Below, in pieces: positions 83 through 591 of a stretch of 54,007 nt of DNA (positions within the stretch are counted from its first letter, which is position 1; each line of letters opens with the position of its first letter). Location: contig JACQXN010000001.1 in NCBI GenBank assembly GCA_016208745.1, positions 1-54,007 of the forward strand, written 5' to 3'. The notes beneath the pieces are model-generated. The model searched no databases. It was not told the origin of the DNA and worked only from the letters and a program-made list of their open reading frames with translations. The stretch comes from Candidatus Portnoybacteria bacterium (GTDB taxonomy: Bacteria; Patescibacteriota; Minisyncoccia; Portnoybacterales; GWB1-42-6). The position numbers and the translations under genes were made by a program.

Positions 83-120
83 GGCTCCGGCGGCAGGATA
101 GTTCGACAGGTTGCGACGGT
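83..120 (-). repeat. Degenerate direct duplicate of the 3' ~35 nt of tRNA-Asn (att-like remnant)
   Basis: 83-99 'ggctccggcggcaggat' is identical to the tRNA-Asn 3' end at 518-534. The following 'agttcgacaggttgcgac' is a decayed copy of T-arm 'tcgaacctgcgac'. Same orientation as the tRNA. Adjacent hairpin 61-85 'ccgtgaacc..ggttcacgg'. Confidence 0.6.
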
Positions 121-139
121 GAGCCCGTCGAACCGCTCA

Positions 140-445
140 CTATTTTTTCCTGCCGCAAGAATCATCAACAACCTCACGGCATTTGCTTAAACGAATCAAA
201 GTTTCTTTATCGCCTTTTATTAAGGCTTTCTTTTTTGCGGCACACCATCCTTTGATTTGCTTTTCACGATTTTCCGCTTCTTTGCGTGTCGCAAAATTTT
301 CAGTATGGATTAATTCTAAATCAGAAAACTTTTTTGTATAAAATGACTCTTTATTTAAATGTTGGCGTAATCGTCTTTGTATATTATCGGTAATACCGAC
401 ATAAAAAGTTTTCTGATCGCAAAAAAGAATATAGAGAGTCCACAT
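140..445 (-). CDS. Small GIY-YIG domain nuclease (YhbQ/UPF0213-like)
   Basis: Motifs 'YILFCDQKTFYVGITDNIQRRLRQH..ENFATRKEAENREKQIKGW' (GIY-YIG, Arg, Glu, Asn). The track ORF 140..577 runs through tRNA-Asn, so the start was moved to the internal Met 'MWTLYIL' at 445. Confidence 0.75.
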   Translation of the reverse strand: MWTLYILFCDQKTFYVGITDNIQRRLRQHLNKESFYTKKFSDLELIHTENFATRKEAENREKQIKGWCAAKKKALIKGDKETLIRLSKCREVVDDSCGRKK

Positions 446-517
446 ATTAATTAAGCCCAGAGCAATTCGGCTGAGCTTGTCGTCGAAAGAAGGGCAAATG
501 CCCTGAGCTTGTCGAAG

Positions 518-591
518 GGCTCCGGCGGCAGGATTCGAACCTGCGACCAAGTGATTAACAGTCACCTGCTCTACCACTGAGCTACGCCGGA
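518..591 (-). tRNA. tRNA-Asn (anticodon GTT)
   Basis: Reverse complement folds as a cloverleaf: acceptor TCCGGCG/CGCCGGA, D-arm GCTCAGTGGTAGAGC, anticodon loop CTGTTAA, T-arm GCAGGTTCGAATCCTGC, discriminator G. CCA is not encoded. Confidence 0.85.

Follow-up and report, generated by a model that had tools for sequence, protein, structure and literature searches.

The DNA analysed here, 54,007 nucleotides of contig JACQXN010000001.1 from the GenBank assembly GCA_016208745.1 of Candidatus Portnoybacteria bacterium (referred to throughout as the window), carries close to its first position an intact tRNA-Asn gene, a small GIY-YIG nuclease gene and a second copy of the tRNA 3' end, all read from the minus strand. 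We describe this arrangement as one copy of a widespread family of compact elements from bacteria of the Candidate Phyla Radiation (CPR), each about 0.4 kb long with a single GIY-YIG gene of ~95 amino acids (101 in the window), and consider how such elements might spread. Full-text literature searches returned no description of this element, and the family is apparently undescribed.

The tRNA-Asn locus

The tRNA-Asn(GTT) gene lies at 520–591 on the minus strand, is intact and encodes no CCA (full-length match to Rfam RF00005 at 75.4 bits; ARAGORN places it at 592–517). Its 3' end belongs to a 17-nt direct repeat, ATCCTGCCGCCGGAGCC, whose proximal copy (518–534, minus strand) comprises tRNA nucleotides 59–73 plus CC and lies within the functional tRNA, and whose distal copy (83–99, minus strand) is a second copy of the tRNA-Asn 3' end. 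The 17-mer GGCTCCGGCGGCAGGAT is found exactly twice in the window, at 83–99 and 518–534, and is absent from 100 of 100 shuffled sequences with two mismatches permitted (chance expectation 0.00). From repeat to repeat the window copy measures 435 bp; a single open reading frame (ORF), and no integrase, lies in the intervening 418 bp.

This ORF, the GIY-YIG nuclease gene, occupies 140–445 of the minus strand (ATG 445–443, TAG 142–140), encodes 101 amino acids plus stop and starts 74 nt from the tRNA. A preliminary description of the locus had recognized the pairing of an intact tRNA-Asn with a small GIY-YIG ORF, which ARAGORN, Rfam and the Pfam match given below all bear out. It had also dismissed a 145-aa version of the ORF, and we agree: this version, opening with GTG at 577, reads through the tRNA, homologues begin with M-W/Y, and the same spurious extension occurs in many database entries, so that the longer frame is, judged by its homologues, an artefact.

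The proximal repeat is abutted by the left terminal inverted repeat of the element, C-TTCGACAAGCTCAGGG (500–517, core 516–503, minus strand), an exact match to the family core. A degenerate second left-end repeat, TTCGACGACAAGCTCAG, follows at 471–487 (minus strand) inside a ~34-nt 5' untranslated insert that alignment shows to be absent from the closest relative, L001. The right end of the element spans 100–139 (minus strand) and consists of TGAGC (139–135), a 24-nt insert (134–111) and the terminal CCTGTCGAACT (110–100); an extra inverted repeat core, TTCGACGGGCTCAC, lies inside the insert at 132–119 on the same strand. We read this layout from an alignment with L001, L003, L005 and L017, of which L005 has the same 24-nt insert. 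The left end at 517–500 pairs with 110–100, where just 7 nt are kept at the tip, and in addition with the inner copy at 132–119. The ORF and the left end of the window copy are intact, the right end is a variant, and one left-end repeat is extra.

The segment 83–120 had previously been taken for a decayed duplicate of the tRNA 3' half. Positions 83–99 are indeed an exact repeat of the tRNA 3' end; positions 100–120, however, are not mutated tRNA, since the alignment identifies them as the element's own right end, whose likeness to a T arm comes from a TCGAA core only. The distal segment is thus a sharp repeat of 16–18 nt rather than a decayed half. Both the terminal inverted repeats and the family-wide architecture had been missed.

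A family of elements at tRNA 3' ends

With an alignment of 28 homologues, 80 loci were retrieved from CPR assemblies taken at one genome per species. In 51 of them the ORF has a tRNA of its own strand less than 300 nt upstream, mostly 30–50 nt away, and in 11 others the ORF starts too near the contig end for an upstream tRNA to be judged. Eight tRNA identities are represented (Asn, Gln, Ser, Lys, Glu, His, Asp and Gly), and the orientation of the ORF is that of the tRNA in all 51 linked copies. Occupancy is patchy, with several Asn, Lys, Glu and His tRNAs of CPR loci standing empty; no Arg (0/13), Leu, Cys or Met tRNA is occupied in this sample, which is biased by the choice of loci for carrying the element.

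Downstream of the ORF, 41 of the 51 linked loci have an exact copy of at least 12 nt (typically 16–18 nt) of their own tRNA 3' end, as against 4 of 51 control regions, and the longest match to the tRNA 3' end averages 15.5 nt against 8.5 nt in the controls. The unit is constant in size, with a median repeat-to-repeat distance of 377 bp and 37 of 42 loci within 360–440 bp. The extent of the repeat is sharply modal in each subfamily, covering tRNA nucleotides 59–74 (16 nt) or 57–74 (18 nt). C74 is common to both repeat copies in 40/42 loci. The distal copy is followed by CCA more often than the proximal one (13/42 versus 3/42), which places the insertion point after C74 and, in tRNAs that encode a CCA, within it; in a small sub-lineage the insertion comes after A76, with the left boundary unchanged. 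Elements whose proteins are 70–79% identical may sit behind tRNAs of different identity, and the repeat still matches the local tRNA. The distal copy likewise co-varies with the tRNA in the related pairs L056/L061 (92% nucleotide identity) and L036/L037 (80%).

These regularities bear on the possibility that the locus is an isolated relic: what remains of a larger island after loss of its integrase, or a tandem duplication of tRNA-Asn that has decayed with an unrelated gene in its midst. Islands do leave direct repeats of a tRNA 3' end behind them, and a genuine ~4-kb island of such kind lies at the window's tRNA-Ser. The same ~377-bp unit with the same ends nevertheless recurs in 42 loci, the duplication stops sharply at 16–18 nt in all 42, and what had been taken for the remainder of the tRNA is the element's conserved right end. 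With a unit so constant in size and a repeat that ends so sharply, we reject both forms of the relic idea, which we consider extremely improbable.

The arrangement extends well beyond the retrieved loci. A profile search returned 3,318 cluster representatives at E≤1e-10, and 57 of the top 150 carry an N-terminal extension, which is the translated left repeat in 12 cases and the translated T loop in 11; on this ground we conclude that the tRNA–element arrangement is common in metagenomes. In a collection of viral contigs no relatives of the GIY-YIG protein were found.

Two observations concern the database records themselves. Many deposited homologues (P0242, P0249, P0251, P0262, P0272 and others) have N-terminal extensions of 20–55 amino acids that read as the upstream T arm (GSNP, VRIP) or as the left repeat (LRQAQ, FDKLR, FGKLS, SASSV); to judge by these residues, the extensions are a systematic gene-calling artefact. 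Many loci (L013, L014, L018, L019, L049 and others) have content typical of CPR and are labelled ‘uncultured Gammaproteobacteria’, Bdellovibrionales, Planctomycetales or Methanoperedens, labels that probably reflect wrong taxonomy or mis-binned contigs.

Terminal inverted repeats

Directly after the proximal tRNA-end copy the family has the left end (C)CTTCGACAAGCTCAGGG, or ACTTCGGCAAGCTCAGTGCAAGC in another subfamily; positions 517–500 of the window are of the first type. The reverse complement of this end, (TGG)TGAGCCTGTCGAACC or CCCTGAGCTTGCCGAAGG, stands directly before the distal copy. The inverted-repeat core, TTCGRCARGCTCA, measures 13 nt and extends to ~23 nt, with the cores abutting both tRNA-end copies. 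The inverted match scores 8.9 on average, against 5.0 after shuffling. The left motif follows the tRNA in 36 of 42 loci and the hexamer cores lie beside both copies in 31 of 42, each against a background of 0.4%. The two ends also co-vary between subfamilies (TTCGAC/GTCGAA versus TTCGGC/GCCGAA), and alignment of the closest elements at other tRNAs shows the right end (100–139 in the window) to be conserved regardless of the local tRNA.

Could these repeats be the arms of an RNA stem? Mismatches between the ends are of the wobble type in 22 and 26 cases on the two strands and are transversions in 54, over half, and identity fades past 13 nt. As the mismatches have no wobble bias on either strand, we interpret the ends as terminal inverted repeats at the level of DNA, and reject an RNA helix as their main explanation.

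Both ends carry the T-loop word TTCGA, and the core goes on with AGCTCAG(T)G, which is like the D-arm consensus of many tRNAs (for example at 500–517 and in L071 and L064). The reverse complement of the right end, GGTTCGACAGGCTCACCA, resembles a shortened 3' part of a tRNA that ends in CCA. From this likeness it appears that the element ends may derive from, or imitate, tRNA gene sequence.

The nuclease

The encoded protein matches the GIY-YIG domain PF01541 over residues 1–72 at 60.3 bits (cut-off 22.6, E=2e-16). Its catalytic core is intact: Y5, Y15, G17, R25, H29 and E61 fill positions that are invariant in the family (Y7, Y17, G19, R27, H31 and E63 in the numbering of P0001, invariant or nearly so in the 28 homologues). 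The ORF evolves under purifying selection, since L056 and L061 share 96.6% of their amino acids and 92% of their nucleotides.

An AlphaFold2 (AF2) model with pLDDT 81 predicts the order E-E-H-E-H-H-H, a three-stranded sheet with helices. Foldseek searches with this model rank UPF0213 proteins (BH0048, EF2693) and Slx1 at places 1–9, followed by the N-terminal domain of UvrC, and the Slx1 nuclease domain superposes at a root-mean-square deviation of about 2 Å over ~73 residues. In phmmer searches of the PDB, 1YWL and 1ZG2 are found at E about 1e-6 and SLX1 weakly. By sequence and structure, then, the protein belongs to the Slx1/UPF0213 clade and not to I-TevI/Seg or UvrC. It lacks the separate DNA-binding domain of known homing GIY-YIG enzymes: within its 101 amino acids only ~25 basic residues follow the catalytic core, there is no second Pfam domain, and the group I intron endonuclease model TIGR01453 reaches 21.8 bits against a cut-off of 56.

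Apart from this nuclease the element encodes nothing: no known transposase family is represented in its sole ORF, and both the Cas1 integrase and the PolB polymerase are absent from its 0.4 kb. A search for a convincing promoter before the ORF found none, as the TATAAT-like strings there are too near the ATG to serve, and a promoter of the element's own was rejected on these grounds. Lacking one, the ORF would be co-transcribed with the tRNA, probably by read-through from the tRNA promoter, and the message released by tRNA 3' processing.

Signs of mobility

Further GIY-YIG copies adjoining tRNA genes, anticipated in the preliminary description, are found both in the window and in its relatives, and the forms that they take are those of a mobile family. 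In L003 a tRNA is followed by a repeat copy, a 99-nt element, a second copy, a full element and a third copy; the 99-nt unit corresponds to the full element's first 38 nt (100% identity) and last 52 nt (98%) and is for that reason a clean internal deletion derivative with a repeat of its own. Another mini copy without ORF is present in L061, truncated remnants lie behind further tRNAs in L009, L051 and L060, and in L019, L032 and L058 the distal copy runs on into the left end of a next element in tandem. One contig bears two copies, L022 at tRNA-Lys and L046 at tRNA-His.

The element also behaves as a repeat, given how often contigs break there: the contig ends at the element in 11 of the 80 loci, and likewise in the window. 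On the minus strand, positions 18–1 (ATGTTTTACGTCTACGTT) translate to MFYVYV, which resembles the N-terminus MYYVYI of the window's second GIY-YIG copy, and run off the contig end. From its residues this is probably the start of another, third GIY-YIG gene or cassette severed by the contig end, and the contig probably broke on a GIY-YIG element repeat at position 1.

A block that is present in some relatives and missing in others, with exact junctions, joins the unoccupied tRNAs as evidence for the presence and absence that the preliminary description had looked to. The element-less L227 and L228 read ...AATGC-TCCGC-C-ATTTTACAC, followed by a 495-aa gene. The left flank of L067 is that of L227/L228 (98.2% over 1428 nt) up to TCCGC, where the element begins; the right flank of L211 is that of L227/L228 (80.5% over 1558 nt), starting from the TCCGC that ends the distal copy. 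The element itself is 99.5% identical between L211 and L212 over 393 nt, against 93.6% in the adjoining gene.

The downstream flanks of elements with identical proteins are of several kinds. A search for such proteins at more than one tRNA, which would have proved recent transposition, failed: P0109, P0097, P0063 and P0033 each keep to one tRNA and differ in flanks alone. Next to the gene that follows the P0097 element no clean empty tRNA-Ser site was found, the sequence before this gene being highly variable, and the one informative empty-site comparison there is the pseudo-site of L227/L067/L211. A metagenome scan with the tRNA-Asn 3' end gave 120 loci, none with the element and none syntenic with the window; it is uninformative because this 3'-end sequence is common to many bacteria.

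A separate observation concerns the flanks of these loci. A ~116-nt segment ending in GGTTCCAGACCCCAATGCTCCGCC, which is like a degenerate tRNA-Ser 3' end, occurs twice in L225 (2339–2450 and 6309–6424), once in L227 (1313–1428) and in the left flanks of L211, L067 and L018. It recurs in several Shapirobacteria-type genomes and adjoins variable cargo such as HEPN/AbiV genes and methyltransferases; it is probably the attachment (att) end of an island family targeting tRNA-Ser.

These signs have to be set against the idea that a tRNA-linked nuclease has been domesticated, is inherited vertically and serves the host, for instance in RNA or tRNA processing or in defence; the inverted repeats and the tRNA-end copy would in that case act as RNA-level signals in a tRNA–mRNA co-transcript. 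The constant orientation of the ORF close behind the tRNA and the purifying selection seen between L056 and L061 agree with such a role, and a prokaryotic Slx1-like GIY-YIG domain fused to a TrmH-type tRNA methyltransferase has been reported (PMC1564403). A host gene would nevertheless not be expected to show the patchy occupancy across tRNAs and species, the tandem copies, ORF-less remnants and deletion derivatives, the present/absent block and the contig breaks; the balance of wobble types and transversions speaks against a conserved RNA helix, and Rfam matches the tRNA alone. We consider this explanation quite improbable.

Mode of insertion

How would a unit of 0.4 kb enter a tRNA gene and yet leave it intact? 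On the reading that we favour, positions 83–517 of the window are one copy of a discrete, CPR-specific mobile-element family that inserts by staggered cutting. The nuclease, perhaps as an oligomer, would bind the TCGA-containing element ends and the TTCGAA of the T-loop DNA and cut the tRNA gene in a staggered manner, at about 58/59 and 74/75; once the element is inserted and the gaps are filled, the 16–18 bp between the cuts would be duplicated, in the manner of a target-site duplication. The element would come to lie after position 74, followed by a second copy of tRNA nucleotides 59–74 or 57–74, and with its end recopied in this way the tRNA would stay intact. Copies would later decay to ORF-less remnants.

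Staggered cutting would fit best because the copy matches the local tRNA across at least eight identities despite changes of tRNA, and because the repeat length is modal per subfamily and the copy co-varies with the tRNA. The direct repeats of the local target, seen at 41 of the 51 linked loci and most often 16 or 18 nt long, may have originated at insertion or have been carried along by the element. That a discrete family with inverted-repeat ends and specificity for tRNA 3' ends exists we regard as hardly in doubt, and that it is mobile, or recently was, as highly probable. A duplication made by staggered cuts at insertion has, in our estimation, somewhat less than an even claim to be correct; the statement taken as a whole, this mechanism included, we hold to be moderately probable.

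Several observations weigh against staggered cutting by the nuclease. We know of no GIY-YIG protein that acts as a transposase, this one has ~100 amino acids and no separate DNA-binding domain, and a stagger of 16–18 bp would be unusually long. The one-way orientation (51/51) is not explained by symmetrical ends alone, and the A76 sub-lineage, with its unchanged left boundary, shows that the repeat can vary in length. Near-identical elements behind two different tRNAs were looked for among the loci and not found, and de novo duplication at a new target has therefore never been caught. The right copy differs from the local tRNA end in L070, L001 and L024, and in L070 and L001 at least it looks like another functional allele, of tRNA-Asn; at the L211/L067 site a good right copy is paired with a left copy that is a degenerate pseudo-tRNA end. 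These mismatched cases fit a copy borne by the element, unless islands integrated later between the tRNA and the element, and a large serine-recombinase island does lie between the two in L201–L203.

An element-borne copy is the essence of a proposal in which the element is an integrative cassette with an att core: an excised circle would carry one copy of the tRNA 3' end between its two inverted ends and recombine through it with a tRNA gene or a similar site, the reaction being either promoted by the nuclease or carried out by an enzyme whose gene lies elsewhere. The allele-like right copies of L070 and L001 agree with it, as does the L211/L067/L227 block, which includes a good tRNA-Ser 3' copy on the right and on the left a degenerate one that shares only TCCGC. 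The inferred circle junction, with inverted arms around a core of 16–18 nt, is laid out like a recombination site, and classical tRNA-integrating islands, among them the one at the window's tRNA-Ser, leave direct repeats of this kind. No integrase is encoded in the element, however, and the proposal predicts mismatches after each switch of tRNA, whereas 41 of 51 loci have a right copy in agreement with the local tRNA, even after changes of identity; the pseudo-site cases are equally explained by an island entering between a tRNA and its resident element, as in L201–L203. We judge this proposal unlikely.

The preliminary description had viewed the interval as a homing-type selfish module. Its characterization as a minimal one-gene GIY-YIG module using tRNA 3' ends holds; homing, however, is one of three mechanisms that remain live, and the terminal inverted repeats and ORF-less derivatives are transposon-like. 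As a strict homing endonuclease gene, the element would, once DNA has been taken up, cut unoccupied alleles of its tRNA gene in another cell or genome and be copied in by repair from the occupied allele. The two tRNA-end copies would serve as portable homology arms (tRNA 1–58 on the left, 59–74 on the right), and the downstream flank would be irrelevant. A GIY-YIG nuclease with an intact catalytic core is what such a gene should encode, and bacteriophage T4 provides a precedent with SegB, a homing enzyme of the GIY-YIG type encoded among clustered tRNA genes (PMC2330249). For 30 of 52 elements the nearest neighbour sits at a tRNA of the same identity, where 8.7 would be expected; two lineages share the element at 99.5% identity and the adjoining gene at 93.6%; intact, decayed and ORF-less copies match the homing life cycle; and presence or absence at the same locus is seen in L227/L228 versus L067 and L211 and in the empty Asn, Lys, Glu and His tRNAs.

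Homing by disruption of the site does not apply, however, because the tRNA target is intact after insertion, so that an occupied gene would not obviously be immune to cleavage. Homing endonuclease genes do not have terminal inverted repeats or internal-deletion derivatives, and homing alone cannot make a repeat of the local tRNA when the element moves to another tRNA, as it has done repeatedly. The protein lacks the C-terminal DNA-binding domain of Seg and I-TevI, falls far below the TIGR01453 cut-off and has no relatives in the viral contigs. Strict homing is in our view a credible but minor possibility.

Comparison with known systems

By analogy, the nearest functional counterpart of the element would be T4 SegB, a free-standing GIY-YIG homing endonuclease gene in a tRNA gene cluster (PMC2330249), and the nearest anatomical counterparts would be insertion sequences (IS), miniature inverted-repeat transposable elements (MITEs) and casposons. 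Like SegB-type genes, the element has a GIY-YIG nuclease as the sole gene of a selfish insert, lies among or beside tRNA genes and is present in some genomes only. SegB-type proteins, however, have ~200–250 amino acids with a DNA-binding domain, their genes show neither terminal inverted repeats nor duplicated tRNA ends, and they spread by phage co-infection; the element protein has ~95–101 amino acids, belongs with the Slx1/UPF0213 clade and is chromosomal in CPR, without relatives in the viral collection.

With IS and MITEs the element shares inverted repeats of 13–23 bp that abut direct repeats of the target, deleted non-autonomous derivatives, tandem insertions, several copies per genome and the assembly breaks that these cause. 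Unlike them, it has no DDE, HUH, serine, tyrosine or Cas1 transposase, its 16–18-bp repeat is always a tRNA end, and its orientation is fixed. Casposons resemble the element in their terminal inverted repeats, in their preference for tRNA gene 3' ends and in a target duplication that is unusually long (14–15 bp; PMC4046053, PMC5137440), to which the direct repeat of the element would correspond; they measure 8–20 kb, however, and carry a Cas1 integrase and PolB. Flanking copies of the tRNA 3' end and an intact tRNA are also seen with tRNA-integrating islands and prophages, for which the tRNA 3' end is the att core; in contrast to these, the element has no integrase, is smaller ~10-fold or more, has inverted-repeat ends and occupies at least eight tRNA identities within one family.

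In sequence and fold the protein is closest to Slx1 and UPF0213 (BH0048, EF2693, YhbQ-like), which are structure-specific nucleases. Eukaryotic Slx1 differs from it in having a RING/zinc domain and in needing Slx4. We know of no Slx1/UPF0213 protein reported in a mobile element with inverted repeats, and the literature searches agree.

A 2024 survey describes GIY-YIG ORFs in non-intron insertions of CPR rRNA genes (PMC11270868). The host group and the enzyme superfamily are the same, conserved RNA genes are hit, and neither kind of insertion is a group I or II intron; those insertions, however, lie inside rRNA genes, and the survey makes no mention of a link to tRNAs, of inverted repeats or of duplicated gene ends. 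The published group I introns of Patescibacteria tRNAs sit at 35/36 and carry no GIY-YIG gene (PMC13011429). An intron of this kind was ruled out for the window locus, where the tRNA is uninterrupted, the site is the 3' end rather than 35/36, and an Rfam scan of positions 1–1300 (E≤5) returned the tRNA as sole match, with no ribozyme, intron or other RNA.

Other features of the window and its relatives

The second GIY-YIG copy of the window is a mirror image of the first and may be called a type 2 cassette (24460–24800, minus strand). Its 85-aa ORF (24717–24463) lies directly 5' of tRNA-Ser(GGA) (24474–24387), with the stop codon inside the tRNA. A copy of the first bases of the tRNA, AGGAAGGGTCGCATA, precedes the ORF (24798–24784, matching 24475–24461) and is followed by GC-rich hairpins. 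In related loci the mirror-image arrangement, with the GIY-YIG gene on the 5' side, is found at 11 tRNAs; the tRNA 5' end is duplicated over 15–45 nt, ending in the D loop, in at least 4 of the 11, and several tRNAs carry both cassette types.

Upstream of tRNA-Asn on the minus strand (693–724 and 743–771) there is a second copy of the first 8 nt of this tRNA and its leader, TAAAATTATTCCGGCG, compared with TAAATATATTCCGGCG at 600–585. TAAAATTATTCCGGCG is followed by the hairpin CCTGTCTGCCGACAGG, and the same hairpin trails the duplicated 5' end in the type 2 cassette of L056. By these resemblances the 693–771 region looks like an ORF-less remnant of a type 2 cassette. A strong promoter-like site, TTGAAA-17-TATAAT, stands just upstream of this putative remnant.

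The 3' end of tRNA-Ser(GGA) is occupied by the ~4-kb island mentioned above (20382–24402), bounded by AAATTGGCGGAAGG(G/A)GCGGG at 20382–20401 and 24383–24402. A 538-aa ORF of the island (22866–24482, plus strand) encodes a putative large serine recombinase and runs antisense through the whole tRNA-Ser; the island also holds a 603-aa ORF.

Beyond the distal tRNA-Asn copy, direct reading of the minus strand gives two hairpins, at 82–63 and 62–35. The first of them, GTGAACCACGTAGGGTTCAC, has a relative, with GGCC directly behind it, after the element of L002 at tRNA-Gln (about 3330–3370), where the preceding ‘copy’, ATCCTGCCCGCC, is more like tRNA-Asn than tRNA-Gln; copy and hairpin together may reflect recombination between element copies at different tRNAs. 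L001 has, at about 2848–2960, a second tRNA-Asn-like sequence downstream of tRNA-Asn, its D loop split by the GC hairpin cggcccgtctcgccaaggcgcgagccgagacgg, which is of the kind found at the ends of type 2 cassettes. Apart from these elements, the window encodes at 1249–1965 (plus strand) a secreted-looking protein of 238 amino acids with ~six repeats of (N/S)(D/N)LG(D/N)L(F/L/I)(V/I)LD(Q/R/E/K)LF.

Implications

In its most far-reaching form our interpretation would see here a new class of transposon, with the ~95-aa Slx1-like GIY-YIG nuclease as transposase. The enzyme would recognize the TTCGAA of the T loop, which the element ends would mimic; the element would insert after position 74 with a duplication of 16–18 bp, keep the tRNA intact and take over its promoter, and the type 2 cassettes would form a sister family that mirrors this strategy at tRNA 5' ends. 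We advance this as a tentative possibility. If the nuclease does drive mobility, the element would be the smallest protein-coding mobile DNA known to us and the first inverted-repeat DNA element to rely on a GIY-YIG enzyme, adding a new catalytic family to the transposases. A nuclease this small with a defined and highly conserved DNA target would also be a candidate for a compact site-directed tool.

For the genomes of CPR bacteria, the element explains the small ‘GIY-YIG family’ ORFs and stray tRNA fragments that flank many of their tRNA genes, the frequent breaks of their assemblies at tRNAs and the spurious tRNA-translated N-terminal extensions in databases. The 3' end of tRNA genes appears to be a safe harbour in these very small genomes, common to mini-elements and to serine-recombinase islands.

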